The notes beneath the pieces are model-generated. The model was not told where the DNA came from. It made no database searches and worked only from the letters and a program-made list of their open reading frames with translations. Shown here one piece after another: positions 7,543-43,188 of a stretch of 64,000 nucleotides of DNA. The number at the start of each line of letters is the position of its first letter. Position 1 is the stretch's first letter. The stretch comes from a virus, in IMG/VR virus record IMGVR_UViG_3300037470_000856, positions 77,030 through 141,029 of that record. One strand, 5' to 3'. The position numbers and the translations under genes were made by a program.

Positions 7543-7655
7543 TTGCTGTTGCTCCTTGTTTACTGGCTGAGTGAGGTGGGGTTCGTGTCGGCGGACCTGG
7601 GAATCAGAGTCACTTCACGCTACCGGCCCGAACCATTCACATATAGGCGCCCTGG

Positions 7656-7670
7656 ATAGGGGCTTTACCG
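7656..7670 (-). promoter_or_regulatory. putative late promoter motif CGGT-AAAGCCC-CTAT
   Basis: matches YGGT-N7-YTAT seen at four other minus-strand structural gene starts. Confidence 0.55.
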
Positions 7671-7713
7671 AGGTCGAAGGGGCTTATAGGGAAACTAAAA
7701 ACCCCTTCGACCT
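7671..7713. repeat. 12-bp inverted repeat AGGTCGAAGGGG / CCCCTTCGACCT
   Basis: perfect inverted repeat between the scaffold stop and the putative late promoter. Confidence 0.7.
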
Positions 7714-7728
7714 GGAGGGGCCGTTCGA

Positions 7729-9189
7729 CTAGCGCGAGCGGGGGAGTCCGAAGACCTCGGCGACGTCGGGAGCGGTGTCCCAGATCTTGCCGAGCTCGGC
7801 GATCTCATCGTGGGCAGCCTTGGGCATGCCCGCGACGTTGCCAAGCGACTTGGCGCCGGCGGAGGCGGCCTTGGGCTGCGGGCGCAGCTTGGGGGCGCCG
7901 GCCTTCTTGCCGCCCTTCTTCTCGTCGGAGCCGAAGTCGAAGTCGTCCTTCTCGGCCTTCTCGTCGGTGCCGGCGTCGGCGTCCTCGGGCTCCTCCTTGG
8001 ACTCCTCCTCCATCTCCTCTTCCTCGCCGCCCTTCTTGGCGGTCTTCGGGAGGTCGAGGTCGGCGTAGAGCGCGAGCAACTCGTCGTCGGCGGAGGCTTC
8101 CTTGTCGGACTCCATGAGGCCCATCGGGTCGGTGCCCGCGGTGATCTCGATGTCGTTCTCGGTCGGGTCGCCCTCGCCGGCCTTCTTCTCCGAGCCGTTG
8201 CTCTGTGCGACGACGGGGGTGTGTGCGGCGGGATCGGGGTTGACGTTGCCGCCCTCGCCCGACTGGATATCCGCGCCCTTGGCGAGGGGATCCCGGTTGT
8301 CCTCGGCCTTCTTGCCGGCCATGACGGACATCTCCTCGTCCATCTCCTCGAGCATGGCGCGGAGCATAGCCTCTTCCTCCTCTTCCTCCTCTTCCTCCTC
8401 CATGGCGCCCTTCTCGCCGGAGTAGCTGTAGTCGGCCTTGTTCTGGTCGACGCCGTCGCCGTCCATGTCCTCGGCCATGAGGTAGGCCATGAGTTCCTTG
8501 TCGCTCATGCCCTCGTCCTCGTCGTCGTCGGCGCCAAAGAAGTGGCCCATCGCCTTGACGATGCGGCCAAGCGCGCCATCGATCTTGTCGAGGCGGGCGG
8601 TCATCTCGTGAGCGGCCTTCTTGCCGCCCTCGTCGAAGAGTTTGGTGCCCTCCGACTCCTCGCCCTTCTCGAAGTCCTTCTCGAAGTCCTTGTCGTCGTC
8701 AGCATCCTCGCCGGCGAGGACGGAGAAGGTCTCCATCGCCGCCTTGAGTTTGGCGTCGTCGAGGTCCATGAGCCGCACGGCGCGGTCCTCGACCGCGCTG
8801 ACCAAGGCGTTGGGCAGCATGGCCGACGCGAGGCGGACGCACAGTGCGGCGCGCTGCTCGGCGAGCTGCTTGAGGGATGCCTGCTTGCCGCCACCCTCCG
8901 CCATCGCCTGCTCGGGCTTCTTCTGGAATTCCGAAGTGGCGGGATGGTCGAGTTTCTCCGTCGTCAGGTTGCCGGGCATCGCCGGAGACGGAGACTCGGG
9001 CTCCATCGGCTTGTGGAGGTCTTCCGCCCACGAGATAGTGTCGCCGTTCTCGTACTTGTCGGCGTCGGGATCAGGGTAATAGGCTGGGGACGCAGGGCCT
9101 TCGGTGCGGTCCACCGCAGGCATCTGCGGAGGCGGCGAAGCCTTCTTGCCCTGCTCGGCCAGTTTTCGGGTGAGTCGTTGACGTGCCAT
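7729..9189 (-). CDS. putative capsid scaffolding protein
   Basis: 486 aa, very acidic and low complexity, between protease and MCP; many KKA/KQA/KTA/KEA sites. Confidence 0.65.
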   Translation of the reverse strand: MARQRLTRKLAEQGKKASPPPQMPAVDRTEGPASPAYYPDPDADKYENGDTISWAEDLHKPMEPESPSPAMPGNLTTEKLDHPATSEFQKKPEQAMAEGGGKQASLKQLAEQRAALCVRLASAMLPNALVSAVEDRAVRLMDLDDAKLKAAMETFSVLAGEDADDDKDFEKDFEKGEESEGTKLFDEGGKKAAHEMTARLDKIDGALGRIVKAMGHFFGADDDEDEGMSDKELMAYLMAEDMDGDGVDQNKADYSYSGEKGAMEEEEEEEEEEAMLRAMLEEMDEEMSVMAGKKAEDNRDPLAKGADIQSGEGGNVNPDPAAHTPVVAQSNGSEKKAGEGDPTENDIEITAGTDPMGLMESDKEASADDELLALYADLDLPKTAKKGGEEEEMEEESKEEPEDADAGTDEKAEKDDFDFGSDEKKGGKKAGAPKLRPQPKAASAGAKSLGNVAGMPKAAHDEIAELGKIWDTAPDVAEVFGLPRSR

Positions 9190-9216
9190 CGTGGTTTCTC
9201 CTCTTGGTGTGCCTGG

Positions 9217-12200
9217 CTAGAACCGGGTCTGCTTTCGCAGCGAAAGGATTCGCCCAAGACGCACCAAGGTCTTGGCTTCTCCCGTTTGTGGTTTGCGACC
9301 GAGCACCTCGGCACAGCGCGCGAGGTACTTATCGAGGGACGGATGCCCGTCGGTAGACCCGACCCGGAGAGCGGTCCTGTAGAGATCCCTCGAAACTTGG
9401 AAGTCGTGGGTCTGCTTGAGCCGGGCGATCCCGTCGATCAACTCCACGTCGGACCGGGCGATGCAAAGCAGCGCCTCGGTCCCGGCGGCCAGCTTGGCCA
9501 TGGCCGCCTGGTGGTTGATGTTCTCGTTGGTGGAGGTCTCGAGTTCGGCGGGCGAGGGCTCGTCCTTGTCGCCCTCGTCGCCCTGCATCTTGTCGCGGAG
9601 CTTCTTCTTGATCTTGTCGAGGACGTACTTCTCGACCGCGTCCTCGAGATCCTTCATCGGGTCCGCGTCCTCGCCCCCGCCCGGGTCGCCTGGCATCCCG
9701 GGCATGCCGCCTCCGGCGTCGTCTCCGGCGTCGTCTCCGGGAGGAGCGGTGAGCTGCGCGAGGCGAGCGTGCGCGAGGCGGGCCTGGCGACGCTCCTCGG
9801 CGAGCTCGGCCGCGGTCTTGGATCCCTCGAAGCTGACGGTCATGTCGCGCGCGGCCTTGGCCATCTCGTCCTCGCTGGCCGTCCACTGGCGCGGGGGCTC
9901 CGAGAGGAGGCGCTGCATCTGGCTGCGTGTGTCGAGGTTGATACTGTCGGGCTGCAGGATGTTGCGCATCACGGCGCCCTGGAACGCCGGGACGTCGACC
10001 CAGGATGCCTCGATGAAGGTAACGCCACCCGTGGGGTCGAGCGTCTCGTGGCCGCACAACTCGGCGACCCGAAATTTGTTGCCAAGCTGGTCGTACTCGT
10101 ACTGGCCCTTGCCATACTTGACGTGCTCGCAGTTGTGAACGGCAAGGCCCTCGACCACATATGAATGATCGCCCTCGACCCCGAAGTTGTGGACCGGACC
10201 AGAGTAGGGCTCGCAGGAGACGCCCCGAACGCGGTAAATGAGCCAGTTACCGACGCGCTTGAACCCATCGGTCACGGCCGACATCGTGACACGGGCTGTC
10301 TCCCGGTCAGAGAACCTGACCTCATCACCGAACCCTTGAGGATCGGAGACCACAAGACCGAACGAGGGGAGCCACCCACGGTGGTCGCGTACGGTAACGG
10401 AACCGTCACCGTTCACCACTTGGTCGAGGGTCGCGCTGCGACCTCCAAAGGTGACCTTCTTGTACGAGTACAAGCCGCACCGCGCGGCTAAGATGTGCAT
10501 CTGGTTCAACAGGTTGAGTGATGTAGTGGAGCCAACGATACCGACGTCCGCCTGCGTTGCATCACCGCCGAGCCACCCGAACAGGACGTGCTTCTGCACC
10601 TCAGGACTCCATCGGAGAATTGAGGGATCAAGACGTTTTTCGTGCGAATACTCGCCGCAGTACCGGAAAAAGAACTCGGCGACCTGGGCATCCATGAAAC
10701 GGACATCCACGGACCCGCTGTCCTCTGTGCTGCCGGAATTCCGGTTCCGATGCACCCGGACCGACCTGTCTGCGCTCCCCACCCACTGCCGGTTGCAAAC
10801 CTTGCACTGGTAACAGTCATCGGCCCCTTTCTTGAACCGGACGTTGTACGCGTACTCCGAGGGAGCCCGGCACCCCGGGCACATGACGTCAGAGGAGACC
10901 GACCGGCTCGTGCTACGTCGATGGACCGGAGTCACGCTGTCGCGGGCGACCAAGGTGCGCCAGTTTTCCGACGAAACCCGTCGCTCGTCGCGGCCGAACT
11001 CCTCGTTCAGGAGCTTCTCCACCTCAGCCGCGAGAGTGTCATGCTCGTGGTGGCCGAATGTGAAACTGACCCCGACCCTCTCACTGTCCCGCTTGATGAA
11101 GGATCCCTCGGCCAGGAAATAGCCAATAAGCCGCGCCCTGTTGACGGTAGCGTCGTCTGTGTTCTCCGTCTCCTGCGGGATGGGGAAAGCGAGATAGTCC
11201 CCAGCCCTGAGGTCTCTAGCCGCGACGAATTCCAAGTCCACGTCGAACAGGCGTTTATAATCCCCCATCTCCACGACGTTCACGGCATAGGGATTCGGGT
11301 TTTGCAGCCGCGTGTTGTGGCCTGGGAGGAACCGGCGCCGGAACGCCTTCACCGAACCGCGCTCGTGCTCCACCGTACGCCGAAGCGGAGCTCCACAGCC
11401 GCACGCGCAGATCTGTGCGGGTCGGAGCGTCCAGTACGGATGGTTGGGGGTGGAGCGCAATCCAACTGGGACCCCGTCGACGTCGAGCGAGATGAGATGC
11501 CCCTCGTACGGACGGCGCATTGTCTCTGTGACGGCGCCCGTCAAACCTGTGTGGGTAACGACGGCATCTCCCTCGACAATCTCCTCGATCGGCACGTACC
11601 GTCCGTCCGCCAGGAGCACACGGGTGCCGGGAGGGAAACACATCTCGGTCTCGTCCGCAGCCACGTTCCCGCACTTCGTGCAGATCGTCTCCGTGACGCT
11701 GCAGCCCATGCTCATCGTGCCCATGCGGCCCGACTCGATGTCGCGGATCAGGCTCGCGTGGCGACGGCTCGTGGCGATGAGGATGTCGACGTAGACCGAG
11801 TCGCCGATGTCGCGGGCGGCGGCGTCGATGATGCGGCCCTTGGACTGGTCCTCGATCTGGACGTGCTCCACGAAGTTGTGGGCGCCGACGAAGGTGCGGT
11901 AGCTCTTGAGCAGCACCGGGCGGTCCCACGCGTCGTGGTTGTTGTTGATGTAGATGTCGCACTTCGGGAGGATGTGGTAGTTCGCCCACCGCCGATTCAC
12001 CCGACGTCCCATCTCGCTGACGTTGCCGAGTTTGACGTTCGACACCTCGGAGGTGTCCACCGACGCCACGATGGTCGCGTGCGTCAGGAGATACTTCTCC
12101 GGGGAGAACTGGTCCTGGAGGATCTCCGACGCCTGCGCCACGAGGTTCGGCGAGCTCGAGGCGGTGCGGACGCGGCCCCTGGCACGCTGCACGAAGTTCC

Positions 12201-12264
12201 CCCAGTAGTCGATCGACCACGAGGGCTGTGTCACGTCCGCGCGGGCGTACTTGAGGAAGGCCAT
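9217..12264 (-). CDS. prohead (capsid maturation) protease with intein
   Basis: NNNHDAW...YRTFVGAHNFVEH...GRIIDA...SMGC...FIEASWVDVPA motifs of Bxz1-type maturation proteases; position upstream of scaffold and MCP. Confidence 0.8.
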   Translation of the reverse strand: MAFLKYARADVTQPSWSIDYWGNFVQRARGRVRTASSSPNLVAQASEILQDQFSPEKYLLTHATIVASVDTSEVSNVKLGNVSEMGRRVNRRWANYHILPKCDIYINNNHDAWDRPVLLKSYRTFVGAHNFVEHVQIEDQSKGRIIDAAARDIGDSVYVDILIATSRRHASLIRDIESGRMGTMSMGCSVTETICTKCGNVAADETEMCFPPGTRVLLADGRYVPIEEIVEGDAVVTHTGLTGAVTETMRRPYEGHLISLDVDGVPVGLRSTPNHPYWTLRPAQICACGCGAPLRRTVEHERGSVKAFRRRFLPGHNTRLQNPNPYAVNVVEMGDYKRLFDVDLEFVAARDLRAGDYLAFPIPQETENTDDATVNRARLIGYFLAEGSFIKRDSERVGVSFTFGHHEHDTLAAEVEKLLNEEFGRDERRVSSENWRTLVARDSVTPVHRRSTSRSVSSDVMCPGCRAPSEYAYNVRFKKGADDCYQCKVCNRQWVGSADRSVRVHRNRNSGSTEDSGSVDVRFMDAQVAEFFFRYCGEYSHEKRLDPSILRWSPEVQKHVLFGWLGGDATQADVGIVGSTTSLNLLNQMHILAARCGLYSYKKVTFGGRSATLDQVVNGDGSVTVRDHRGWLPSFGLVVSDPQGFGDEVRFSDRETARVTMSAVTDGFKRVGNWLIYRVRGVSCEPYSGPVHNFGVEGDHSYVVEGLAVHNCEHVKYGKGQYEYDQLGNKFRVAELCGHETLDPTGGVTFIEASWVDVPAFQGAVMRNILQPDSINLDTRSQMQRLLSEPPRQWTASEDEMAKAARDMTVSFEGSKTAAELAEERRQARLAHARLAQLTAPPGDDAGDDAGGGMPGMPGDPGGGEDADPMKDLEDAVEKYVLDKIKKKLRDKMQGDEGDKDEPSPAELETSTNENINHQAAMAKLAAGTEALLCIARSDVELIDGIARLKQTHDFQVSRDLYRTALRVGSTDGHPSLDKYLARCAEVLGRKPQTGEAKTLVRLGRILSLRKQTRF
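10132..11640 (-). mobile_element. intein with LAGLIDADG homing endonuclease in the protease (503 aa)
   Basis: starts CFPPGTRVLLADG, block B TPNHP, LIGYFLAEG, ends VHN followed by Cys. Confidence 0.9.
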
Positions 12265-12265
12265 C

Positions 12266-12916: not shown

Positions 12917-12921
12917 AGTCC

Positions 12922-13869: not shown

Positions 13870-13890
13870 TCGTGCTTCCCAGGGGGGCTA

Positions 13891-14406: not shown

Positions 14407-14514
14407 TGAACTTCTCCTGGCGTGTCAGCGAAGAGGTTTGGTTGCTGACGAAAGCGGGCGCGCATAGGACCCTCAAGATGGAGGGGCAGCCCTTCGTCCT
14501 ATTTGGGCCGCGCT

Positions 14515-14529
14515 ATAAGGCGAAAAACG
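14515..14529 (-). promoter_or_regulatory. putative late promoter motif CGTT-TTTCGCC-TTAT
   Basis: near-identical to the 36668..36682 copy; lies in a ~345-bp intergenic gap. Confidence 0.6.
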
Positions 14530-14752
14530 GCGACTTCTGCACTTTTTCTGGGAGGCAAACCTCCCCCGAACGCGCCCGTCCGACCTCGACCGGAGTTTCT
14601 CGGGAGGATCTGACGACTCTCAGGTGCCCAAGGAGGACAAACCGTTCCAGTCAAGGGATCTCTGCATACTCGGAACCCTTCTAAGGAGCATTCAGGCCCC
14701 TAGAACCCACGTGGCCGGAGACCGCGTGAGGTTCTAGGGATGTTTTCGACCT

Positions 14753-24915: not shown

Positions 24916-24943
24916 GCGGAAGGTCTCCGCTAGACGGGACGCG

Positions 24944-24958
24944 ATAGACCGAAAACCG
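24944..24958 (-). promoter_or_regulatory. putative late promoter motif CGGT-TTTCGGT-CTAT
   Basis: 28 nt upstream of the 24915 start; matches the consensus. Confidence 0.6.
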
Positions 24959-24961
24959 TCG

Positions 24962-25498
24962 CTAAAACCCGCTTGGCCGTGATCTTCGCCGGGCCTGTCG
25001 GGCGGCTTCCTCAGCGGCCGCGGCCTCCTGCTCGAGCATCTCGGCCTCGCTCTCCGCGAGCTCGCGGGCGTGCTCCACCTGATCCCTTGCGTGCCGTGCC
25101 TGCTTCCGGGCCGTCTCGGCCCGACCCTCGGCGATCTCGGCCTTGGCTTCGCCGAACGACTGCACCCGCATCTTGCGGCCTCCCGTCATTGGAGAATGCA
25201 CATGGTCGGGAGGTACCGGAACGAAGGGCCCCGTCAGGTTCCTCGGATCGGCCGGCACCGTGATTCCCCCCATGTCGGGAATCGGAGGGCCTTCGTGGTA
25301 GGCCCCGCGCTCGGGGTATTCCTCGGCCACGCGATGACCTTCTCGGGCCTGCTCCATCTGGCGCTGGATGACGCCCCTGGTCGGCGCGAGCACCTCGACG
25401 ATGTGCTCCTCGGGATCCCCGTCTCCGGGCATCATGGAGGTGCGGTTCTCGATGAGTGCGTGGAGGGTCTCAATCTCCTCGTCCAAAAGGTCGGTCAC
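24962..25498 (-). CDS. hypothetical protein
   Basis: 178 aa, start overlaps the portal stop. Confidence 0.6.
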   Translation of the reverse strand: MTDLLDEEIETLHALIENRTSMMPGDGDPEEHIVEVLAPTRGVIQRQMEQAREGHRVAEEYPERGAYHEGPPIPDMGGITVPADPRNLTGPFVPVPPDHVHSPMTGGRKMRVQSFGEAKAEIAEGRAETARKQARHARDQVEHARELAESEAEMLEQEAAAAEEAARQARRRSRPSGF

Positions 25499-27477
25499 TC
25501 TTCGCTCTTCTTCCTGGTCCCGATCAGACGCTCGACCACCGCGTCGGCGATCTTGGCGACCATGTCGTCGGAGAGCTCAAGGGCCTTGGCGGAGGCGGTC
25601 CGGAGCGATGCGAAACGTCCCATGGGCCCCTCCTCCGGCTTCGTGTAGTCGAGCCCGAGCCGCTCGGCGATCTTCTCGGCGATGTTGGAGTTCTCGGCGA
25701 GCTGGTCTCCAGTGCGACCGTAGACGGACCGAAGCACCTCGTTGAACTGCGCGTCGTTGAAGGTGGCGAAGTCCCGCTCGAGGCGCTCCTTGACCACCAC
25801 GGGGTCGATGTTGAGCAGGTCGAGGATGGTCTCGACGTCCAGGGACCCCTTCTGGTAGAGTTGCATGAGCGCATCGAAGGTGTCCTGGTTGTCCCGGAGC
25901 GCGAGCCTCGTGAAACTCAGCTTCGGGTAGATGACGACCATTTCGCCGTCCGCGTCCTTCTCCACGAATCCCATGCGGCGGCACATGGGCTTGAAGAAGT
26001 ACTGCTCGACGAGACGCTGCACGTTCTCGCGCAGCAGCATGTAGCGCGTGTTGATGACCTCGAGGTTGATCCGGTCACCGCTGTAGGAGGACTCGCCGTT
26101 GAGCAGCGTCTCGGTCACGCCGAGGCCCGCGTAGAGCTGCCGGCTGATCAGGTCGTACTCGCCGGTGAGCTCGAGCAGGCGCCCGTTCGAGTTCATCTCC
26201 TCCCAGGTGACCGGGAAGTTCGTGACGATCGAGTAATCCGGGTCCTGAAGCGCAAGGTCAATCTGGTCGCGCAGGTTCTCCGTGTCAGACTCGCTCATGT
26301 CCTCCGCGTACACGAGCCGCACGGGCGTCATGTGGCGCGAGGCGATGGATGTCTGTGCCTGGCGGAGTTTGTCGAAGTAGACGAGGACGCGGAGGCAGCG
26401 CTGGAGGATGCTGTGGCCGCGAGGCTCGTACTGCGACTTCTTGTTCGCCATGTAGTGGACGAACGAACCCCCGTCGGGGTCCGTCGAAAGCGGAATGTTG
26501 TCGCCTCGACGCAGGGCTTCGACGACGACGGGGTCCATCGACTCGGCGACGCGCTGCGCGTTCCTGTCGCCCTGCTCCGCCATCTCGAGAACGTGTTTCG
26601 TCTTCGCGTCGGGGATCAACTCGATGATGACTTGGTCCGTGAACGGGAAAGTCTGGATGTGCACCTGCTCGGGAGGCAGGATGCGGATGTTCGTGAGACC
26701 CCGGTAGTTCTGCTTGAGCCAGTCGACCGCGAGGTCGTCGGCCTCGTCTCGCTCGACCCACTCCTCCCTCAGCGTGCTGTCGCGCTCGACGCGACGCACG
26801 ATCTTCTCCCGGATCTCCCGAGGCATCTCCGGGTTTCCATCCTCGCAGAAGATGAACACCTCGCCGATGAGAAAGTAGTCGTGGACGATCTCGAGCAGCC
26901 GCTGCAGCAGCCCGATGTTCTCCACCCACTTCTCGCAGAACCTCAGGGCCCTGTCCGCGAGGTCCCGGCTCTTGGCCTTCGGACGCGCGAGCCGGACCTT
27001 CGACAGGGGAAGCTCCGTGTGCAGGTCGATGGCCTGCCCGACGAACGGCTCGTTGTTATAGAAGAACCGGTAGTAGTTCCACTGCTCGTTGAGCGACTGT
27101 GGGAGCTCGAGGAAGTCGGGGGACAACTCGGGCGAGTAGAAGTTGCCCGCGGACGCCTGCGAGACCGCGCCGGGTCCCGCGTTGCCCCCGAAACCTCCGC
27201 CCCCTCCGAAACCTCCGCCCCCTCCGACCACGCCGCCACCGAAGCCAGTACCCCCGAACGAACCGGAGCCCGGGCCGCAGGAGGCAGCCACCTTGGCGCG
27301 GAAGCTCGTGGTCGCCTTCGACCTCATGGAGCCGACAACGACGCGCGATGGCTTGCCCACGCGGACGTGGGTCCGGTGGTTGGGCACCTCTGCGACGACG
27401 CGCTCGTCCTCGTTCCGCCGCGTAGACGCGACGGTCGCGGGGCCTGCGATCGCCTTACCTGATCCTTCCGCTGGCAT
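25495..27477 (-). CDS. portal protein
   Basis: YRFFYNNEPFVGQAIDLHTELPLSK, YFLIGEVF, RGHSILQRCLR, AGLGVTETLLNGE; downstream of terminase; Gly-rich N-terminal extension. Confidence 0.8.
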   Translation of the reverse strand: MPAEGSGKAIAGPATVASTRRNEDERVVAEVPNHRTHVRVGKPSRVVVGSMRSKATTSFRAKVAASCGPGSGSFGGTGFGGGVVGGGGGFGGGGGFGGNAGPGAVSQASAGNFYSPELSPDFLELPQSLNEQWNYYRFFYNNEPFVGQAIDLHTELPLSKVRLARPKAKSRDLADRALRFCEKWVENIGLLQRLLEIVHDYFLIGEVFIFCEDGNPEMPREIREKIVRRVERDSTLREEWVERDEADDLAVDWLKQNYRGLTNIRILPPEQVHIQTFPFTDQVIIELIPDAKTKHVLEMAEQGDRNAQRVAESMDPVVVEALRRGDNIPLSTDPDGGSFVHYMANKKSQYEPRGHSILQRCLRVLVYFDKLRQAQTSIASRHMTPVRLVYAEDMSESDTENLRDQIDLALQDPDYSIVTNFPVTWEEMNSNGRLLELTGEYDLISRQLYAGLGVTETLLNGESSYSGDRINLEVINTRYMLLRENVQRLVEQYFFKPMCRRMGFVEKDADGEMVVIYPKLSFTRLALRDNQDTFDALMQLYQKGSLDVETILDLLNIDPVVVKERLERDFATFNDAQFNEVLRSVYGRTGDQLAENSNIAEKIAERLGLDYTKPEEGPMGRFASLRTASAKALELSDDMVAKIADAVVERLIGTRKKSEE

Positions 27478-27518
27478 TGCTGCTCATCTCCTGTGGTCCT
27501 GTATTCTGTGGGTGCAGA

Positions 27519-27977: not shown

Positions 27978-27986
27978 CTCGACACC

Positions 27987-28244
27987 CTACCGAAAAGACG
28001 GCTCCTTGGTGACGTAACCGTGCTTGACGGCCAGCTTGAGAATCTTGCGGAGAAGCACCACGTCGCGAGCCGATCCCCTGAACAGGCGCTCCCACGAGCC
28101 GCCGGCTCGGGCGAACGCGCGGGCCACCCTGTCGAACTCCTTCGGCAGATGAAGGCACTTCGGCTTCATGAAATTGTCGAGTTGATAGGCGATGAACCGG
28201 TGGTCCGCCCGGTTGGGGTCGCCCGGCATGATCCCCTTCGCCAT
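27987..28244 (-). CDS. hypothetical protein
   Basis: 85-aa ORF directly after terminase. Confidence 0.6.
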   Translation of the reverse strand: MAKGIMPGDPNRADHRFIAYQLDNFMKPKCLHLPKEFDRVARAFARAGGSWERLFRGSARDVVLLRKILKLAVKHGYVTKEPSFR

Positions 28245-28247
28245 GGC

Positions 28248-31200
28248 CTATCGCCCCCGCCTGCGAGGAACCTGCCGCTTCGGGTCGGAGCCGCCGAGCA
28301 GCCTCTTCCTGTGGTTGATGCGTCGGACCTTGGCCGAGACGCCGGGCTGGTTCGGATCGGCGTTCGTCTGGGAGCCCGCGATGTGCTTCAGCTTCCCAAG
28401 ATGCATACTCGCGAGATAGAGCGAGCGCGCGAGCGCGTCCGCCATATCGTCGTGCTTCCCGTCGGACTGCGGCGCCTGGACGTCGATGATGTACTTGGCC
28501 TTGTAGGTCGCTTGGAGGGAGCGGATCTCCTCAAGGTACTCAAGGTGCTCGGGAGGGGTCTCCTCGCGCCGGAGGTATGCCTGCTTCTCCTGGTCGGTGA
28601 TGTCGTAGAGGGAGAGGCGCGACGTATCACCGACGCGGTCCCACAACAGCGACTTGAAGTTCTGCCAGATCTGGCTCTTCTCGGTCTGCGAGAAGAGTTT
28701 GCCCTCGAGCATGGTCAGGCCCTTCTTAGCGAGCGCCTGCTCAAGGGGGATGGCGCCCCACTGGTCGAAGAGGCCCTTGTAGAACCGGAAGCGGCGGGAG
28801 AGCAGGTAGATCCAGTTGGCGACGTCCTCGAACTCAAGCCGGTCCTTGTCGATGAACTCGCCCTCGCCGGCCTTCATCTTGCCGATGAAGTCGAGGATGA
28901 TGCGGCCCTGCGGGTCGATGTGCGTGATGGCGATCGACGAGGCGTCGTGGACGAGGCCGAGGTCGAACCCGACGAAGTACGCCTGCCGAGGCTCCCCGCG
29001 GTGACGTGGGCGAAGGTTCTTGTCGATGCAGTCCCACAGATCCTGGTCCGAGTCGAGCCAGCCGAGGGTGCGGTCGGTGAACTCAGCCCCGAACTCAACC
29101 TGGAACTTGCGCGGGTCGAAGGCGTACTCCTCCTTGAACGCGGCCGCGGACATGGTCGGGTTCACCTCCCACGTCGGCGCCTGCACGGCGAGCATGTTGC
29201 GGGTAGAGTCCCCCCCGTTCATCGCCTGCTTGAACTTGTCGTAGAAAAGACCCTGCTTGCCGAGGGGGCTCGAGATCATGATGATCCGGCCCTCGGACTC
29301 GGTGTCATCGCCGTCGGCCGGGTTGCCGAACGCGTCCTTCGGAGTGAACGTCTTGTTCGACGGCGACAGGGCCGTGTAGACCTCCTCGGCCGAGCTGCCG
29401 CCCTGCTCGAGGAAGTGCGCGACCTCGTCGAGGATGATGACGATGTTGCCCGGACCGCGGAGGCTCTTGGCGTTGCAGGCCGCGAACGAGACGCGCACGG
29501 AGGCGCGGGCCCGGGGGTTCTCGACGTAGGAACCGAACTCCTCGATGTCGTACGGAGTCTGGAAACGCGCGTAGGAGAGGGTGTTGTTCGCCGTGTACCG
29601 CTTGAAGAACGAGCACTTGGCGAAGTGGTGGCTCACCTCCTCGTAAAGAAGACCCGCCTGGTCCTTGCCCGTCGCCACCGAGAGGAGGCGGATCGGGTTG
29701 GAGGGGGCGAGCCCGTAATACCTCTGCGGGTTGCCTTTGTTGATCAGCTTGTACGTCTCGTACGCGGAGATGCACGCGGAGATCGTCGTGTTGTGATTGG
29801 TCAGACCGTTGGCCACGAAGCTCTCGCCCTCGGGCACGTTGAGATCGTAGACCTCGTCATGGTCCTCCACCACGAACTCGACGGGATCGTAGAAGTAATC
29901 GGCGGAGAAAATCTCGTCGAAATGCTCGATGAAGTCACGAGACGCTCCTTGGCCCAGGGCCACCGGTCGCGCCTCCCTCCAACGGGGGTAGGTCATCTCG
30001 TCGGGCGCAGAGAGCTTGATCGTGTTGCCGAGTTTGTCGCGCAGCTTGGACCGTTGCCAGCCATTGCCCATGCTTTTGTGCTCCGTGGGAACGGAGTCCA
30101 GCAGTCTCCGGCACCACGAGCGCTGGTGAGGAACACCCTCCGTGTCGCCCCTCTCTCGGGACACCGACCGAATCTTTGCGACAAGAGGGGCCATCTTCTT
30201 GCGCGTCATGAACCCCACGCGCTCAGCAAACATCGTGCGCGACCGCAACCCCCGAATCGTGAGGACGTGGTAGTCGCGTCGATGCTTCTTGTTCCACTTG
30301 GCCTTGCGACGGCTCACAATGCCCAAGTTAAGGAGCAACACCTGAACCTCGCGAGCAAGACGCTCGCTGGCCGTCGAGAACGAGACGGTGTTTCCGACTG
30401 ACTCGACGTCTCCGTCCGTCTCGAACAGACCCCGCAGGAACGCCTGCACGACAGGTACCGGAGACTTCATGATCGACCACGGGACGTGCTTGCTGTACCG
30501 GTCGCAGTCCCAGTCCCACCCCAGCTCGTGCAGGAATTCGCGAGCGGCCACGCTGTGAAAGCGCAACGCACCCGTGTTCTCCGTCCTCTTGTCCATCGTG
30601 CGTGTGGATGGCCCGAGCAGCTCCTCGAAGAGACCCTCAGCCAGTTCCCACATCTCGTCGTGCTCGACGGTCATGCAGATGCCGTTCTGGGGCTTCCAGT
30701 GACCGTCTCCCACCAGCATCCCGAGAAGGAGGCCCCACTTCTCGTCGACGTGAGCTGGGAATTGAACGTTCTTGCGTCCCGGATGAAGCAGACGCTCGAC
30801 AACATCGGTCGTCGAGACCTGTTCGGACGCCCACAGATCCGTCCCACGGTGAACCGCGATCTGATCTCTCTCACGGATCTCGTCCAGCCTGCGCCAGTCG
30901 ATGACCCCTTCCTCCGTCATAACCCTGACGCGGTGGTTGGGGGTGCCCGCGATCTCGTACCCGCAGTGCGTCTTGACTCGACGAATCTCTCGGTGGCCTC
31001 CTCGATAGAAGTAGGCCGACTTGCTGCGCTTCCGTGCCCCCTCCTGTGCGACGGTGATCTCGAGAGGGAAGTGCTCCTCGCCAGGGTACTGAACCCACGA
31101 CAAGAAATCGTCGAAGCTGTCGATCCTGACCACTCCTTGGTCGGTGAAAACGAGAGTGTCGCCGACAACACATTTGCCCGAGCGGCGTCCGATGGGGAGG

Positions 31201-31535
31201 ATGAGGTTGCGACGCTCGTGGCCCGGCTCTACCTCGGCGATGTTGCACTCATCGCGGTCGTGCTTCCACCGCAGGTACTCGGCCTCGGTGAACCACTGCT
31301 CATTCTCCCGTTTCCAGTCCGTGATGCGGAACCGGTTGTTCGAATTGTCGTCGAGCGGGATGCCGTAGTGCGCCTTGAGGATGACGCGCTGGACGGGCCA
31401 GAGCTTGAAATTGAGGCCCCAGTCCGCCTCGATGAACGTGACGATGTCGACGACGTCGCGCTTGCCGTCGTCGACATGGAGACGCCCGGCGTTTAGTGCG
31501 ATCCGGGCAAGGTTCGCTGCTGCCTTCCCTGCCAC
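28248..31535 (-). CDS. terminase large subunit with intein
   Basis: Walker A GRRSGK|T, Walker B IIILDE, ISSP coupling motif, nuclease GFDLG...HDDMADA. Confidence 0.92.
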   Translation of the reverse strand: MAGKAAANLARIALNAGRLHVDDGKRDVVDIVTFIEADWGLNFKLWPVQRVILKAHYGIPLDDNSNNRFRITDWKRENEQWFTEAEYLRWKHDRDECNIAEVEPGHERRNLILPIGRRSGKCVVGDTLVFTDQGVVRIDSFDDFLSWVQYPGEEHFPLEITVAQEGARKRSKSAYFYRGGHREIRRVKTHCGYEIAGTPNHRVRVMTEEGVIDWRRLDEIRERDQIAVHRGTDLWASEQVSTTDVVERLLHPGRKNVQFPAHVDEKWGLLLGMLVGDGHWKPQNGICMTVEHDEMWELAEGLFEELLGPSTRTMDKRTENTGALRFHSVAAREFLHELGWDWDCDRYSKHVPWSIMKSPVPVVQAFLRGLFETDGDVESVGNTVSFSTASERLAREVQVLLLNLGIVSRRKAKWNKKHRRDYHVLTIRGLRSRTMFAERVGFMTRKKMAPLVAKIRSVSRERGDTEGVPHQRSWCRRLLDSVPTEHKSMGNGWQRSKLRDKLGNTIKLSAPDEMTYPRWREARPVALGQGASRDFIEHFDEIFSADYFYDPVEFVVEDHDEVYDLNVPEGESFVANGLTNHNTTISACISAYETYKLINKGNPQRYYGLAPSNPIRLLSVATGKDQAGLLYEEVSHHFAKCSFFKRYTANNTLSYARFQTPYDIEEFGSYVENPRARASVRVSFAACNAKSLRGPGNIVIILDEVAHFLEQGGSSAEEVYTALSPSNKTFTPKDAFGNPADGDDTESEGRIIMISSPLGKQGLFYDKFKQAMNGGDSTRNMLAVQAPTWEVNPTMSAAAFKEEYAFDPRKFQVEFGAEFTDRTLGWLDSDQDLWDCIDKNLRPRHRGEPRQAYFVGFDLGLVHDASSIAITHIDPQGRIILDFIGKMKAGEGEFIDKDRLEFEDVANWIYLLSRRFRFYKGLFDQWGAIPLEQALAKKGLTMLEGKLFSQTEKSQIWQNFKSLLWDRVGDTSRLSLYDITDQEKQAYLRREETPPEHLEYLEEIRSLQATYKAKYIIDVQAPQSDGKHDDMADALARSLYLASMHLGKLKHIAGSQTNADPNQPGVSAKVRRINHRKRLLGGSDPKRQVPRRRGR
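29790..31172 (-). mobile_element. intein with LAGLIDADG endonuclease in the terminase P-loop (461 aa)
   Basis: starts CVVGDT, TPNHR, LLGMLVGDG and FLRGLFETDG, ends TNHN followed by Thr. Confidence 0.92.
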
Positions 31536-31539
31536 GAAC

Positions 31540-32238: not shown

Positions 32239-32250
32239 CGTGCCCGGCTA

Positions 32251-32874: not shown

Positions 32875-32877
32875 GGC

Positions 32878-35617: not shown

Positions 35618-35618
<1 letters not shown>
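33348..35618 (-). CDS. large hypothetical virion-associated protein with internal duplication
   Basis: 756 aa; EHGLAGKVYVRASAY and HEGLSGHLYVDAAAY, each followed by a Cys cluster; RTA/KTA sites. Confidence 0.7.
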
Positions 35619-36640
<1,022 letters not shown>

Positions 36641-36667
36641 TGTGAAACTTCCTGCCAAGGGATGTCT

Positions 36668-36682
36668 ATAAGGCGAAAACCA
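36668..36682 (-). promoter_or_regulatory. putative late promoter motif TGGT-TTTCGCC-TTAT
   Basis: 27 nt upstream of GTG 36640; matches the consensus. Confidence 0.6.
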
Positions 36683-36728
36683 CGCCCGCTCGGCCGCTAC
36701 GGCCCAGACGCAACACGCGCCCTGTGTC

Positions 36729-37310
36729 CTACACCTTGAGTGGCTCGCCAGAATCATCGAACAGGCGCGAGATCACGAAGCTGTTGCCCATGTTCTCGAA
36801 GGCCCACAAGTCTTTCGTGGCCTTGTGGACGAGTTCGTTGTTGTTGTTGTTGTCGCCCCCCCGAAGGAACCCAGAAAGATCACCGAGGCTCGAAACACGC
36901 ATCGCGAAGTTGCTCGCGCGCTTACGGTTAGGAGCAGCCGCATGAAGGTGTTCGGGGTGGATCGCCATGAACTGCCCGGCATCGAATTTCACGAAGACCC
37001 ACCCTCCGAGTCCGGTCTGGTCCCCCTCGACCGTGCGCACCATGACGACGGTGCCCTCCGCGTCGGGAACTGGCGGGTCGGCGTAGGACAAGACGCTCCC
37101 GATGTTCGTCACGAACGAAACGCGCGTCCCCGCCTCCACCGGGATCTCGAGCGCGTTGGCGGCCCGTCCTCGATCGGTGAGGGACCGAAGGCCGGCAAAC
37201 TCGACACGCTCCTCATGCTCCTCACGACTGCTCAGGTAGTCGTCGAGCGCCGAGGCCGTACGGCTCTGCTGACCGAGCATCAGGTTCTCCCAGAATTCGT
37301 CGTTGGACAT
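36729..37310 (-). CDS. hypothetical virion-associated protein
   Basis: 193 aa with SRTAS and KRAS sites, GGAG RBS. Confidence 0.7.
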   Translation of the reverse strand: MSNDEFWENLMLGQQSRTASALDDYLSSREEHEERVEFAGLRSLTDRGRAANALEIPVEAGTRVSFVTNIGSVLSYADPPVPDAEGTVVMVRTVEGDQTGLGGWVFVKFDAGQFMAIHPEHLHAAAPNRKRASNFAMRVSSLGDLSGFLRGGDNNNNNELVHKATKDLWAFENMGNSFVISRLFDDSGEPLKV

Positions 37311-37320
37311 GACTGTTCTC

Positions 37321-38928
37321 CTAGATATCGCGCTTCACAACGTAGTTGATGGTCAGCGCCTGCGGAGCGCCAAAGGCGATATCGAACCCGAGGACGGTCT
37401 TGGCCGCGTTCGGCACGAACGGGATGTCCGTGACAGCGACCGGAGGCCCCTCGGGCTCGATAAGGACCGTGTAAGCGGTGTCGGGCTGTGGCTCCGGGAA
37501 GAGCACCGTCACCACCATCCCGGCCGCGAACACGGCCGACCCGTAGGCAGTCGTCTCGGCCAGCGTCCCCGTGCTGGCGCCGACCAGAGCACCGCGCGTG
37601 CAGTTACTCAGAACCGTGGCCGGGGCGACTCCGCCGACGATCATCGGACCGAACGCGCACCTGCGCGCCGTGAAACTCTGCGCAGGCGCGTCGCCGCTGT
37701 ATGTTGTGGACCCGGCGACCGTGCAGTCCGTCAGCGTCAGGCTGCCCACGCCGACGTAGCCCGCCAAAAGCCCCGTGCCGCCGATCAACACGTTGTTGAG
37801 TTCGTAGATCGAGGTTCCGATGACGGGGAGATCGGGGTTCGTGTTATCGTAGTTGAGAGCCGCCCCTTCGATCTCGACGCCGTACAGGTGGCACGCGGCG
37901 CAGTCGTCGACACTGAAGGTCGTGCCGGTCGCGGCTTCGAGCCAGTTGCCCCCGCTCACATAGAGGTTGTTGACGGCCGAGGCACGCAGGGTGAACCCGG
38001 TCGCCGCGGCGGGCACAAGGTCGCAGCCGAGGACCTGGATCAGGTCATCTCCGACCGTCGATCCTGGCGAGCTGTCCGCGCCCCCGGTGAGCGTCGCACC
38101 CGAAGGGACGATGACCAGGACGACCGTGCTCAAGAGCGTGATGGCGTTGCCCGCCACGCCGTCCTCAAGGGCTCGGATCGTCACGACGGAGCCCGTGACG
38201 GTGGCTACCACGAGACCCGTGATGCCGTTGACGGGGTCGTTGATCGCATCGGCCAGGTTGGCGGCAGTCGTGTTCTCGTCCGTCCCCAGCTCGAACTCTC
38301 CGGGCGCCGGGACGCTGCCGTTGGCGATGGCTGTGAAGGTGGTGCCGTCGACGTCCGCGACGTCGCCGATGTTAGGAACTGAGGCGATAGTGAACGACCC
38401 CGCTGCGAACTGCGCGCTCGAGATGTCGATGCAGGCCTCGCCGGGCTCTGTGTTCTCGATCCGCATGTCGCGGATCGCGACGCGGCGAGGAACCGTGTTG
38501 ACGCCCTCGCGCATGCGGAGGGTCGAGACGGCCGAGGCGTTGCGTAGTCGCACGGTGCCGAGACCCTGGAGGGTCACCCCGTCTTTGAGGAAGTAGACGT
38601 CCTCGACGTAGAAGCCCGGAGCCACGAAGACCGTCCATGGGTCGTTCACGTCGGACCCGTCGGGCACCGCGTCGAGGGCCGCCTGGATGGTCGTGATCGG
38701 GTCGCCGTTGGCGTCCTTGCTCGCGCCAGCGCCGGTCGGGGAGACCACGATCGTGTTGTTGACCTGCTGGAGGCCCGCAAGTTCATAGAGGCTGATGCCT
38801 CCGGGGATGCGAATGTCCGTGAACCGCAGCGACCCGTCGCTCACGGCGGCCTCGATCAGGCGTGGGCCCGCGGGGGCGTCGGCGTTCTCGACTTCGTATG
38901 CGTCACTTCTGAATGGAGGCTGCGCCAT
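37321..38928 (-). CDS. putative fibre/spike protein with pectin-lyase-like beta-helix
   Basis: ITTIQAALDA...VFVAPGFYVEDV...VTLQG is the typical entry into a parallel beta-helix; Gly/Thr/Val rich. Confidence 0.6.
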   Translation of the reverse strand: MAQPPFRSDAYEVENADAPAGPRLIEAAVSDGSLRFTDIRIPGGISLYELAGLQQVNNTIVVSPTGAGASKDANGDPITTIQAALDAVPDGSDVNDPWTVFVAPGFYVEDVYFLKDGVTLQGLGTVRLRNASAVSTLRMREGVNTVPRRVAIRDMRIENTEPGEACIDISSAQFAAGSFTIASVPNIGDVADVDGTTFTAIANGSVPAPGEFELGTDENTTAANLADAINDPVNGITGLVVATVTGSVVTIRALEDGVAGNAITLLSTVVLVIVPSGATLTGGADSSPGSTVGDDLIQVLGCDLVPAAATGFTLRASAVNNLYVSGGNWLEAATGTTFSVDDCAACHLYGVEIEGAALNYDNTNPDLPVIGTSIYELNNVLIGGTGLLAGYVGVGSLTLTDCTVAGSTTYSGDAPAQSFTARRCAFGPMIVGGVAPATVLSNCTRGALVGASTGTLAETTAYGSAVFAAGMVVTVLFPEPQPDTAYTVLIEPEGPPVAVTDIPFVPNAAKTVLGFDIAFGAPQALTINYVVKRDI

Positions 38929-38937
38929 GGTCTACTC

Positions 38938-39381
38938 CTAGACGAACACGTCGTACTGAACCGTCCCCGTGTAGGTCACGTTGAGCTCGATGTCGAAGCC
39001 CGTGGTGGTCTTGTTAACGATCCGCCAGTCGATGAATTCCTCGAGCGTCACGTACACGCGGTAGTTCGTGTTCGCGAACGGCGTGGCGAACACGATCGAC
39101 TGGCTCGTCTGGTCGACGAAGTTGAGAGTCCCATTTACTGCGCTCGACTGTGCCAAGATGTTCTCCACATCCGCCTTCGCGGCGTTGATCTCGTCGAGGA
39201 CGCAGCCTGGGATCTGCGTGTTCGAGCCGCAGATGCTGCCGTTCGGCGACTTGATGCCGCTGACTCCGCAGGTCCCGTCCTGGTTGACGTCGATGGTGAA
39301 CATCCACGACGGGTTGCATGGGTCGTTGACCCGCACCATGTAGACGAAGCAACTCTTGATGCGCGTTCGAACACCCGACAT
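38938..39381 (-). CDS. putative structural protein (fibre-associated beta domain)
   Basis: SIVFATPFANTNYRVYVT...NKTTTGFDI resembles the C-terminal domain of the adjacent gene (VLFPEPQPDTAYTV..KTVLGFDI). Confidence 0.55.
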   Translation of the reverse strand: MSGVRTRIKSCFVYMVRVNDPCNPSWMFTIDVNQDGTCGVSGIKSPNGSICGSNTQIPGCVLDEINAAKADVENILAQSSAVNGTLNFVDQTSQSIVFATPFANTNYRVYVTLEEFIDWRIVNKTTTGFDIELNVTYTGTVQYDVFV

Positions 39382-39382
39382 C

Positions 39383-39700
39383 TCACCAGATCCAGTTGGT
39401 TTCGAGTCCGCGCTTCGCGAGCCAGCGCTCCAGGGTCCTCAGGGCGTCACGGTCCGAGGACCACACGTAGAATCCCTCGAAGTCCTCGCTGACTCCGAGA
39501 TCGGGGATGGGCTGAACTTCCGAACCACCTGAGCCGAGCTTGAGTTTTCCATCCCGGAACGAGCGCAGCACCGAGGCGTAGTCTTTCGCGTTCGGGTTGA
39601 ACACGCGGAACCGGTACTCGGGACTGGCCTGCGCCAGCAGCCACTGCCGGGCGACCTTCTTGGTCATGATGGCCCGACGTGCTGAGTGTTCCTCGGACAT
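39383..39700 (-). CDS. hypothetical protein with KVARQWL motif
   Basis: 105-aa ORF, GAGGAG RBS. Confidence 0.65.
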   Translation of the reverse strand: MSEEHSARRAIMTKKVARQWLLAQASPEYRFRVFNPNAKDYASVLRSFRDGKLKLGSGGSEVQPIPDLGVSEDFEGFYVWSSDRDALRTLERWLAKRGLETNWIW

Positions 39701-39725
39701 GGGTTGCTCCTCGCCGGCCGTCCGG

Positions 39726-40502
39726 CTAGCCCTCCTTGCACCCGCTGAGGTCGATAACCACCGAGGGGACGGGCATCTTGCCGTCCGGCTCCGCGATCTC
39801 GTCGGCGACGGGCTTGATCATCCCCCCAACGTAGTTGACAGCACCGATCGCAGCGGTGCCCTTCTTGCAGTTGGCGCTCTGTAACTTCGTCGCGTAGTGC
39901 AGGACCGCGGCGATGGTGATGCCGGCGATGGCCTCGACGAGCGCGGCCGCCTCGGGGTGACCCATCGTAGCCGCGACGTCGGGCTCGACCGGGGGCTCGG
40001 GCTCCTCTGGGAGGGCTTCCTCGGCCGGAGAAACTTCCTCGGCCGCGGGCTCCGGCTCGGCCGGGGGGGCTTCTTCGGACGGCGCCTCTTCCTTGGCCGG
40101 AGCGACGTAACCCGCGATCTGTGTCACGACGACGATCGGCCCGTGAAGGCTCACGCTCTCGGTCACGTCCGCGTCGGCCCGGAGTGCCAAGCACCCGGAC
40201 ACGTCGATGTCGACGGCCGGGATGACGATCTTGTCCTGGAGACGCCCGGCGAGCACCTCGGCCGCGCTGTCGAACGCGGTGATGAGGAATGTGGCAGCGA
40301 CGCACCCTTCGAAGTTCTTGGCCTTGATCGCCTCGTTGTAGCCAATCATGGACGCCGTGCCGCCGCCCGCGAACGCGACCTGGATCAGGGGGAAGTATTC
40401 CTCGGGATTCGCAGTGCCTTTGGTGGGCCTGCATCCGCCGAGGGCGATCGGGAGGATGAGAAGGGCGCTTGCTGCGAGTTTGCCGAACCGGGCCATGGAC
40501 AT
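39726..40502 (-). CDS. lipoprotein
   Basis: basic N-terminus, hydrophobic stretch, lipobox LGG|C; Pro/Glu-rich linker. Confidence 0.65.
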   Translation of the reverse strand: MSMARFGKLAASALLILPIALGGCRPTKGTANPEEYFPLIQVAFAGGGTASMIGYNEAIKAKNFEGCVAATFLITAFDSAAEVLAGRLQDKIVIPAVDIDVSGCLALRADADVTESVSLHGPIVVVTQIAGYVAPAKEEAPSEEAPPAEPEPAAEEVSPAEEALPEEPEPPVEPDVAATMGHPEAAALVEAIAGITIAAVLHYATKLQSANCKKGTAAIGAVNYVGGMIKPVADEIAEPDGKMPVPSVVIDLSGCKEG

Positions 40503-40525
40503 GGTCTCCTACCCGATGTGCCAAA

Positions 40526-40540
40526 ATAGGAGGAAAACCG
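40526..40540 (-). promoter_or_regulatory. putative late promoter motif CGGT-TTTCCTC-CTAT
   Basis: in the short gap ahead of the whole structural block; matches the consensus. Confidence 0.6.
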
Positions 40541-43134: not shown

Positions 43135-43188
43135 GTCTCCTCTTCTACCCCTCCGGGCCGACGGGCCAGGAATCTACCCGTGCCAGCC

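Follow-up and report, generated by a model that had tools for sequence, protein, structure and literature searches.

The sigma-70 promoter is made of a TTGACA-like -35 element and, 16-18 bp away, a TATAAT-like -10 element with A at position 2 and T at position 6, and the sigma-54 promoter of GG at -24 and GC at -12, separated by 10 bases (TGGCAC-N5-TTGC). The T4 late promoter has an 8-bp element, TATAAATA, at -13 to -6, which gp55 reads together with gp33 and the sliding clamp; T4 middle promoters combine a MotA box at about -30 with a sigma-70 -10 element and work through "sigma appropriation" by MotA and AsiA; and gp36 of phage phiEco32 is a complete sigma factor with region 2, whose promoter is a single -10-type element. 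Here we describe a short element, CGGT-N7-YTAT, found at the heads of virion-gene units in an uncultured virus, IMG/VR virus record IMGVR_UViG_3300037470_000856, together with the two-gene cassette that adjoins its first copy. "The window" below means the whole stretch of 64,000 nucleotides (nt) that was analysed (positions 77,030 to 141,029 of the record). It is the final part of a single 141,029-bp contig of 64.5% G+C with a completeness of ~31% (CheckV), and nearly all genes of the contig lie on the minus strand as judged from the third-codon G+C signature.

Several further systems are described in the literature. Phage-encoded sigma factors such as phiEco32 gp36 reprogram the host core polymerase to a phage-specific consensus (PMC8948821, PMC12276001). 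The ops element of RfaH is a 12-nt sequence, GGCGGTAGnnTG, on the non-template strand (PMC5995543). In Cluster K mycobacteriophages, a 13-bp start-associated sequence (SAS), GGGATAGGAGCCC, lies 3-7 bp before the start codon, and its function is still unknown (PMC3203893). As for huge phages, a review of jumbo phages reports that the phage G group has neither subunits of RNA polymerase nor sigma factors and makes no mention of NusG-like proteins (PMC7824862), and a survey of huge phages contains no description of promoters (PMC7162821). Neither the motif nor the cassette is described in the papers found by our literature search, which also gave no paper on phage-encoded NusG paralogues of the kind described below.

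The best available reading of the element, as yet unproven, is that of a late promoter particular to the phage, with a specificity cassette that the phage itself encodes. On this reading, to which we give a probability of roughly 0.55, the motif would be the core of a promoter class used by host RNA polymerase, with a 203-amino-acid (aa) protein made of two sigma-70-region-4-like domains (the tandem sigma-4 protein) on its two boxes. The class is proposed to drive the virion genes of a huge-phage lineage, i.e., genes for the head, packaging, "cargo" and tail, the last of which lie outside the window; the word "late" is deduced solely from the virion genes downstream.

The motif is real, and chance is excluded as its source. 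All five minus-strand strings and the plus-strand variant listed by the first-pass annotation are present where it had placed them (Table 1), and its description of a strand-specific intergenic element with fixed spacing stands: one and the same element heads the capsid operon (a 219-aa gene followed by the gene of the major head protein), the protease block, the block running from a DUF5661 gene to terminase, and the giant multi-enzyme "cargo" genes. That every copy is intergenic holds when the DUF5661 gene is started at GTG 36640, as in relatives; with the ATG of the longest open reading frame (ORF), at 36757, the copy at 36668 falls inside a gene. In the window, the degenerate pattern YGKT-N7-YTAT by itself is only weakly above chance, with six matches against 2.25 +/- 1.5 expected and 3 of 100 shuffles reaching six; the sixth match, at 28185-28199, was absent from the earlier list. 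Across the whole 141-kb contig, 12 of 13 pattern matches are on the gene strand. The whole-contig matrix scan that had been proposed as a check was made with an independent 15-column weight matrix, built from 29 other phage loci only. It gives 10 gene-strand matches of at least 14 bits, against 0.30 +/- 0.52 in Markov simulations (Poisson p ~1e-12), and 15 of at least 12 bits against 1.23 expected. The single match of at least 14 bits on the other strand is the plus-strand copy at 53246-53260. The longest ORFs leave 10.5% of the contig uncovered, and this part holds nine of the 15 matches of at least 12 bits (p = 4e-6); several of the remaining six look non-coding once homology sets the start codons, as in the case of the DUF5661 GTG. 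The motif is accepted as real because of its strand, place and conservation, not because of the pattern count alone.

Conservation was followed from the cassette outward. To obtain the footprint, 29 non-redundant loci (40-91% protein identity, 42-66% G+C) were aligned solely at the YTAT that comes first past the sigma-4 gene, with nothing upstream of it forced. YTAT stands 5-35 nt past the stop codon of that gene in 29/29 loci, mostly with the full motif upstream, and the aligned columns read C (25/29), G (20/29), G (19/29), T (27/29), A or T (25/29), any base, T (21/29) and C (19/29); the next three positions lack A and are rich in pyrimidines or G, while the flanks are random. YGGT-N7-YTAT is recovered in this way without pattern bias across genomes of such different base composition. 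In 561 kb of related loci, GGT-N7-YTAT occurs 0.58 times per kb in gene-strand non-coding DNA, vs 0.047 in coding sequence and 0.034 on the other strand. All five minus-strand sites (40526, 36668, 24944, 14515 and 7656) have kept counterparts in relatives, and those at 36668, 24944 and 14515 stand at equivalent positions in four related loci (L010, L011, L013 and L018), where the flanks vary. Upstream of the 219-aa gene in 56 non-redundant relatives, the best gene-strand matrix score has a median of 7.2 bits, while the opposite strand gives 1.6 bits and coding sequence -0.6; scores of at least 9 bits are reached by 18 upstream regions on the gene strand, one on the other strand and none in coding sequence. 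Here the motif mostly keeps a steady 90-135 nt from the ATG, and the capsid-leader versions relax box 2 to nnAT(A) and box 1 to CRRTA. A second matrix, trained on the contig's own sites only, finds, over the 29 loci, 31 gene-strand matches within 4 kb downstream of the sigma-4 gene vs 4 within 4 kb upstream (p = 2e-6), and therefore the cassette marks the start of the motif-led units. Strict-pattern counts give a clear strand excess in the records G000, G001 and G002. A divergent gene junction in G002 (~387.0 kb) carries a sigma-70-like TTTACA..TAAACT and no motif.

The element consists of three boxes. Box 1 is C-G-G-T-W on the coding strand, CGGTTT in this phage's own copies and CGGTAG in many relatives; box 2 is Y-T-A-T exactly seven bases past it, so that the two boxes are one helical turn apart, and the consensus of both is CGGTWnTCnnyYTAT. 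Box 3, missed in the first-pass annotation, is (G)GTAG or TA[GTA] and lies 10-14 bases downstream of box 2. Among 39 sites, TRR stands 13 or 14 nt past TAT in 24, and GTAG begins 12-13 nt past TAT in 14 and hardly anywhere else, while box 3 words have dispersed positions relative to the start codon. Box 3 of the long capsid leaders, where the ATG is ~100 nt away, appears as TATATG, TATAGA, TAGTAC etc., 10-12 nt past box 2. Because it is fixed to box 2 and present in these leaders, box 3 is taken as a part of the signal and not as a mere ribosome site. A GGAG-type Shine-Dalgarno-like sequence does follow box 3 at many short-leader sites; a Shine-Dalgarno sequence alone was rejected as the whole story, given that GTAG tracks box 2 and occurs in the capsid leader. 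GGTAG[GA] is the top enriched word overall in the non-coding DNA of the contig, GGTAGG being enriched 22-fold. Stand-alone GGTAGnnT boxes are also seen on the minus strand at 49588-49593 (TAGAAT), 5880-5885 (TAGTAT) and 2361-2366 (TAGGGT), 5-7 nt before an ATG and without a Shine-Dalgarno sequence; they resemble -10 elements of leaderless mRNAs and may represent a second promoter class.

The start codon mostly follows TAT by 23-35 nt, typically ~27, and hairpins of -5 kcal/mol or lower are found within 28 nt past TAT in 22/39 sites, 17 of the 22 beginning only 0-2 nt past TAT. Such a tight spacing, a box 1 that is U-rich in this phage with hairpins directly after the motif, and the lack of terminators between units would also be expected of a signal acting on RNA, i.e., a processing site at which polycistronic late transcripts are cut in front of a protective hairpin, or an SAS-like, start-associated translation signal; GGGTAGGAGACC at 40503-40514 does resemble the SAS consensus (PMC3203893). 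We regard such a signal as the least probable of the explanations considered, since the capsid and 14515 leaders are exceptions with a conserved motif 108-143 nt from the ATG, box 3 follows box 2 and not the start codon, and the linked proteins are of DNA- or polymerase-binding types, not nucleases or RNA binders. Moreover, an invariant TAT with free intervening bases is more in keeping with a protein that reads two grooves of the DNA than with cleavage by an RNase. Identity with SAS itself was rejected on the same geometry, box 3 being held at a fixed distance from box 2 and standing ~100 nt from the ATG in the capsid leader.

The first copy of the motif begins 11 nt past the stop codon of the gene for the tandem sigma-4 protein, which the earlier note had singled out for in vitro transcription and which turns out to be the best candidate for its reader. 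Pfam Sigma70_r4 matches its residues 46-98 at 1.4e-9, and a profile of 22 related proteins finds region 4 of SigF (1e-6) and FliA in the PDB. Sigma-4 domains and the AlphaFold2 (AF2) model (pLDDT 78) can be superposed at 0.7-1.3 A, with domain-level Foldseek matches to region 4 of SigF, SigR and SigD; the second domain is the weaker region-4-type helix-turn-helix, and the N-terminal 45 residues are predicted at low confidence. No region 2 is detectable in the protein by Pfam, PDB profile or Foldseek, which return region-4-type matches only. Its relatives are found at 39 IMG/VR loci with 40-91% identity, and the family has at least 446 metagenome members, none characterised and automatically named "sigma-24 family". 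In phage records, tblastn finds the protein in LR745208.1 only, and phage G and Tunturi_5 are without a detectable homologue. LR745208.1 also carries a second, 288-aa tandem sigma-4 paralogue with 37% identity at 154162-154614, distant from the first, a hint that these phages have more than one promoter class. A distant clade gives indirect support for an assignment of one domain to each box: where box 1 has changed from CGGT to CAGT, CACT or TGAT, the recognition helix of domain 1 has changed from SQPTVCYRLQRA to TQAAVSYRLKRA or TQAAVSYR[IL]KRA, and in the same clade both the domain 2 helix (QGxVRHR) and the box 2 TAT are unchanged. This co-variation is a single evolutionary event and is not proof.

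Directly upstream of the sigma-4 gene lies the other gene of the cassette, encoding a 177-aa protein of the NusG/RfaH/Spt5 family. Its profile matches full-length NusG at ~1e-5 and the Spt5 KOW domain at 5e-9 in the PDB, and all top Foldseek matches of its AF2 model (pLDDT 92) are NusG, RfaH or Spt5. The protein is found in G000-G003 and LR745208.1; its gene is near the sigma-4 gene in the four records checked (G000, G001, G003 and LR745208.1) and directly upstream of it in ~20 of the 29 loci.

A NusG/RfaH-fold gene next to the first motif copy recalls RfaH, and the motif could be an ops-like transcribed loading or pause site instead, at which the NusG-like protein boards a polymerase started upstream and confers termination resistance at the operon head, with no initiation there. 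Many relatives have CGGTAG as box 1, identical to C3-G8, the six-base core of ops in E. coli as read on the non-template strand (PMC5995543), and box 3 is GGTAG. In the capsid-operon leader, CGGTAGCGTG (7616-7625, minus strand) agrees with ops (GGCGGTAGCGTG) at 11 of 12 positions, counting two preceding bases, and is retained by close relatives as GGTA[GA]CGTG. Furthermore, the elements are on the coding strand just past co-directional genes with no terminators between, so that read-through would reach them. We nevertheless consider this explanation unlikely. Box 1 of this phage is CGGTTT, not CGGTAG, and T11 and G12 of ops are unmatched; a single exact match to a 10-mer is close to the chance expectation for 141 kb (~0.6 by estimate); and the 177-aa protein is nearer to NusG than to RfaH by sequence, with a KOW domain modelled as an ordinary beta-barrel. 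The explanation also leaves the tandem sigma-4 protein and the fixed-spacing YTAT unaccounted for, and the plus-strand copy at 53246 has no co-directional gene upstream. A sequence similar to CGGTAGCGTG, GGGTAGCGTG, is seen at ~43853-43862.

The ORF that follows this plus-strand copy, the only plausible one of its strand, is beyond the reach of read-through from the minus-strand genes, and this counts for a promoter. The ORF has no ATG, GTG or TTG past the motif; GGAGGAG is followed 6 nt on by ATT, a possible rare start at 53282. A search of IMG/VR for relatives of 53282-53938 found none.

The polymerase at work here could in principle be a phage RNA polymerase that standard profiles fail to recognise, starting directly after YTAT in the manner of T7 (..CTATA|G). 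This would agree with a compact, uninterrupted element of 15 nt and no conservation upstream of it, with several copies reading YTATAG like T7 positions -5 to +1, and with the hairpins that show compensatory changes and begin right after TAT, as expected of 5'-terminal stem-loops. The genome has many huge unassigned ORFs, and the search with PF00940 for a T7-type polymerase matched nothing in G000, LR745208.1 and G001-G004, its control matching no genome either. Yet an Rpb1-type domain (Rpb1 domain 2, with a working control) was not found in five related records, three of them 92-100% complete (CheckV), and comparative work reports no polymerase in the phage G group (PMC7824862). The factors of the cassette are of kinds that act on bacterial multisubunit polymerase, and such an enzyme would give box 3 no role in initiation. 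We hold this to be quite improbable, although not as much as a signal in RNA. With no recognisable phage RNA polymerase, it is therefore the host RNA polymerase that would be redirected. As for other factors, sigma region 2 (PF04542) has no match in the contig or LR745208.1; among relatives, matches are weak at G001:C1:481442-481630 and G002:C1:294418-294588 and clear at G003:C1:182380-182568.

In the favoured late-promoter reading, the tandem sigma-4 protein would bind boxes 1 and 2 with one domain each, and this contact would substitute for the normal -35 contact. The NusG-like protein would next board the polymerase, possibly at box 3, whose GGTAG is similar to the core of the RfaH ops, and would keep it going across operons that include 4-11-kb genes, making them termination-proof. 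Three geometries may be considered. (a) If box 3 is the -10 element, boxes 1 and 2 would be at about -41 to -27, as in T4 middle promoters; this fits the tight motif-to-start distance, through leaderless or near-leaderless mRNAs, as well as the stand-alone TAGnnT sites. (b) If box 2 is the -10 element, box 3 would be at about +3 to +8 as a pause site like that of lambda PR' or an ops-like loading site, and the Shine-Dalgarno sequences would be retained in the transcript. (c) If transcription starts right after TAT, the hairpins would be 5' stem-loops.

A number of points weigh against the favoured reading. A sigma-4-only protein cannot melt DNA, which leaves a -10 reader to be accounted for, and the T at -7 of a normal -10 element is missing from both YTAT and TAGnnn. 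Since only 31% of the phage is in hand and relatives have region-2 matches, the remainder may encode a fuller sigma factor, and the true reader may be another factor. Each geometry also has its own difficulty: (a) would leave the Shine-Dalgarno-like GGAG at or after box 3 untranscribed at most sites, and the 36668 site has AGGAAG in place of a TA-type box 3; the start in (b) would cut the conserved hairpins; and (c) is the layout of a single-subunit polymerase, none of which was detected. Two more distant complete relatives, G003 and LR745208.1, have no excess of the strict motif, their copies being more degenerate. Over the 23 kb of replication genes in the contig no motif copy occurs, which by itself falls short of significance (~0.07 by estimate).

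Possibly the two functions are joined in a single element of ~35 nt that hard-wires initiation and antitermination, where the sigma-4 protein would dock host polymerase on boxes 1 and 2 and an ops-like box 3, placed either at the -10 position or within the first few bases of the transcript, would load the NusG paralogue. We regard this version as tentative and rather doubtful.

How does the element compare with the described systems? By its sequence, it lacks the defining features of sigma-70, sigma-54, T4 late, ops and SAS elements. The non-sigma-70 character proposed in the first-pass annotation is borne out, as the motif fits no sigma-70 consensus: a consensus scan of positions 1-60000 gives no site at any motif copy, no -35-like hexamer is found 17 bp upstream of YTAT or box 3, and TATnnn and TAGnnn are without T at position 6. 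An intrinsic-terminator scan of the same positions found terminator-like hairpins no commoner than in shuffles. A sigma-54 promoter was rejected on spacing, the arrangement here being GG-N8-YTAT with no conserved GC dinucleotide; a TGGCAC that follows the 40526 site is not kept at the equivalent sites of relatives. The motif differs from the ops consensus as well, with CGGTTT or CGGTAA as box 1 in the window and without T11 and G12 at the right spacing after the CGGTAG of relatives; GGTAG of box 3 and CGGTAGCGTG are partial ops matches only. The ops element itself has a separate promoter upstream and depends on T11 and G12 as pause bases, whereas the present locus has a second invariant box, YTAT, and a DNA-binding sigma-4-type protein. 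The likeness to RfaH/ops lies in a NusG-family gene that adjoins a short CGGTAG/GGTAG element of the non-template strand at the head of long operons.

T4 late promoters are similar in being short phage-specific elements without a -35 element before many virion genes, and in that a small phage factor takes the position of beta-flap/sigma-4; in the window, a clamp-loader gene is found just upstream of the cassette. The T4 late promoter was rejected as an identity, given that the consensus CGGTWnTCnnyYTAT differs and positions past TAT are G/C-rich and unconserved. There are also differences in architecture, a 15-nt bipartite element with a third box here vs an 8-nt single box in T4, and no gp55-like region-2 protein is found in the fragment with PF04542, a search in which no gp55-specific model was used. 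With phiEco32 the locus would share the use of a phage sigma-family protein on a phage-specific consensus for middle and late genes, whereas the 203-aa protein has no detectable region 2.

By analogy, T4 middle promoters, lambda PR'/Q and RfaH/ops are closest in logic. In T4 middle promoters, too, a phage protein on a phage-specific box replaces the -35 element upstream of a -10-like box starting with TA, on host polymerase, and the spacing of boxes 1 and 2 to box 3, 10-14, is comparable with ~12 between the MotA box and -10. They differ in that the candidate reader here is built of sigma-4-like domains, the upstream element is bipartite, box 3 is without T at -7, and virion genes rather than middle genes are served; no homologue of AsiA or MotA was seen, none having been sought. 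With lambda PR'/Q, the locus would share a regulator gene immediately upstream of the late promoter, long late operons, and a promoter DNA element with a promoter-proximal -10-like repeat that could pause polymerase for the loading of an antitermination factor. On the other hand, Q is unrelated to NusG and sigma-4 (only a faint match to a PHROG "Q-like" family was obtained, at 3.5e-4), and PR' is a normal sigma-70 promoter present once in lambda, compared with a dozen or more copies in the 141-kb contig.

The individual sites are collected in Table 1. The copy at 40526 lies 23 nt before ATG 40502 of a 258-aa gene, and that at 36668, which heads the block running to the large terminase, is found in the same place in six related loci. 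The extra copy between terminase and portal stands 15 nt before an internal ATG of an 85-aa ORF; it is left as possible, and uncertain, because it is kept in the closest relative only. After the 24944 site, the 1368-aa multi-enzyme gene is followed by a ~2000-aa polyprotein, and sites of this type are also present in five related loci. At the equivalents of the 24944 site, box 3 (TAGC) is in a hairpin loop whose stem has changed on both sides with the pairing kept: the stems are CCCTTC/GGAGGG, CCCCT/AGGGG, GAGAGCCCT/AGGGCTCTC and GCCTC/GAGGC in L010, L011, L012 and L018, and the hairpin is weak in the window. The 14515 site, 108 nt before ATG 14406 of a 171-aa gene with the protease block next, is kept with its flanks in L011. 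The 7656 site is 113 nt before ATG 7542 of the 219-aa gene. Just upstream of it, a long hairpin at 7671-7725 (minus strand), TCGAAGGGG...CCCCTTCGA, holds the better-scoring 7686 copy in its loop; in L059-L068 the stem shows compensatory changes and the loop retains TTTAGTTnnnCTATA. At the other end of this leader, the last ~30 nt before the ATG of the 219-aa gene (~7545-7575, minus strand; ..GTAAACARGGAGCA..) are kept in ~60 relatives (L059-L132), many of which can form a small stem, CCCTG-TAAA-CAGGG, over the ribosome site.

Table 1. Motif copies, cassette genes and other features of the window.
Feature	Position	Strand	Remarks
Boxes 1 and 2, CGGTTTTCCTCCTAT	40526-40540	-	19.8 bits; match present in related loci L020-L056
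Box 3, GGTAGGAG	40506-40513	-	14 nt past TAT; overlaps Shine-Dalgarno-like AGGAG
Boxes 1 and 2, TGGTTTTCGCCTTAT	36668-36682	-	14.8 bits; 27 nt before GTG 36640 of DUF5661 gene
Possible extra copy, CGGTTCATCGCCTAT	28185-28199	-	14.9 bits; between terminase and portal
Boxes 1 and 2, CGGTTTTCGGTCTAT	24944-24958	-	19.6 bits; 28 nt before GTG 24915 of 1368-aa multi-enzyme gene
Spacer with box 3 TAGCGG (24927-24932)	24916-24943	-	
Boxes 1 and 2, CGTTTTTCGCCTTAT	14515-14529	-	16.1 bits; box 3 TAGGAC at 14496-14501
Second copy in capsid leader, TTTTAGTTTCCCTAT	7686-7700	-	12.9 bits; 30 nt upstream of 7656 copy, better-scoring
Boxes 1 and 2, CGGTAAAGCCCCTAT	7656-7670	-	11.0 bits; box 3 TATATG at 7640-7645
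Plus-strand copy, CACTTTTTCTTCTAT	53246-53260	+	17.1 bits; precedes only plausible plus-strand ORF (53282-53941)
Tandem sigma-4 gene, 203-aa product	40551-41162	-	two sigma-70-region-4-like helix-turn-helix domains, ~residues 39-103 and 109-181
NusG/RfaH/Spt5-family gene, 177-aa product	41169-41702	-	NGN + KOW; directly upstream of sigma-4 gene
Clamp loader	41662-43134		just upstream of cassette
Large terminase	28248-31535		recognisable gene
Portal	25495-27477		recognisable gene
Protease-like 1015-aa protein	9217-12264		recognisable gene
Major head protein	5991-6866		recognisable gene
Seven tRNAs	51352-52984		

Among phage collections, the record nearest to this phage is LR745208.1, a 485-kb uncultured huge phage with a portal identity of 63%, followed by Tunturiibacter phage Tunturi_5 and Bacillus phage G; closer relatives, with portal identities of 63-88%, are found in IMG/VR, some on contigs of 230-619 kb. 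A megablast search of phage records with 20 kb of sequence gave no match. The replication-gene block, which is without the CGGT-N7-YTAT motif, has a match to a sigma-70-like promoter (ATGACA-17-TAGATT) at 43171-43199 on the minus strand, just upstream of the clamp-loader gene.

Huge phages of the phage G group reportedly lack polymerase and sigma factors (PMC7824862), and for the timing of their virion genes the motif with its linked cassette of NusG-like and tandem sigma-4 proteins offers a concrete, testable hypothesis. Should the sigma-4 protein truly stand in for the -35 contact of the host, this would amount to a new form of sigma mimicry, and a phage NusG paralogue tied to late operons would be new among the literature searched. 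If initiation and antitermination are indeed combined in one element, every late unit of these 400-600-kb phages would be termination-proof from its start, and this would be a previously undescribed takeover of bacterial RNA polymerase. The giant multi-enzyme "cargo" genes share their signal with the capsid genes, which fits "cargo" products as virion components. In the genomes of uncultured huge phages, where most genes are of unknown function, the motif is a practical marker of late transcription units.

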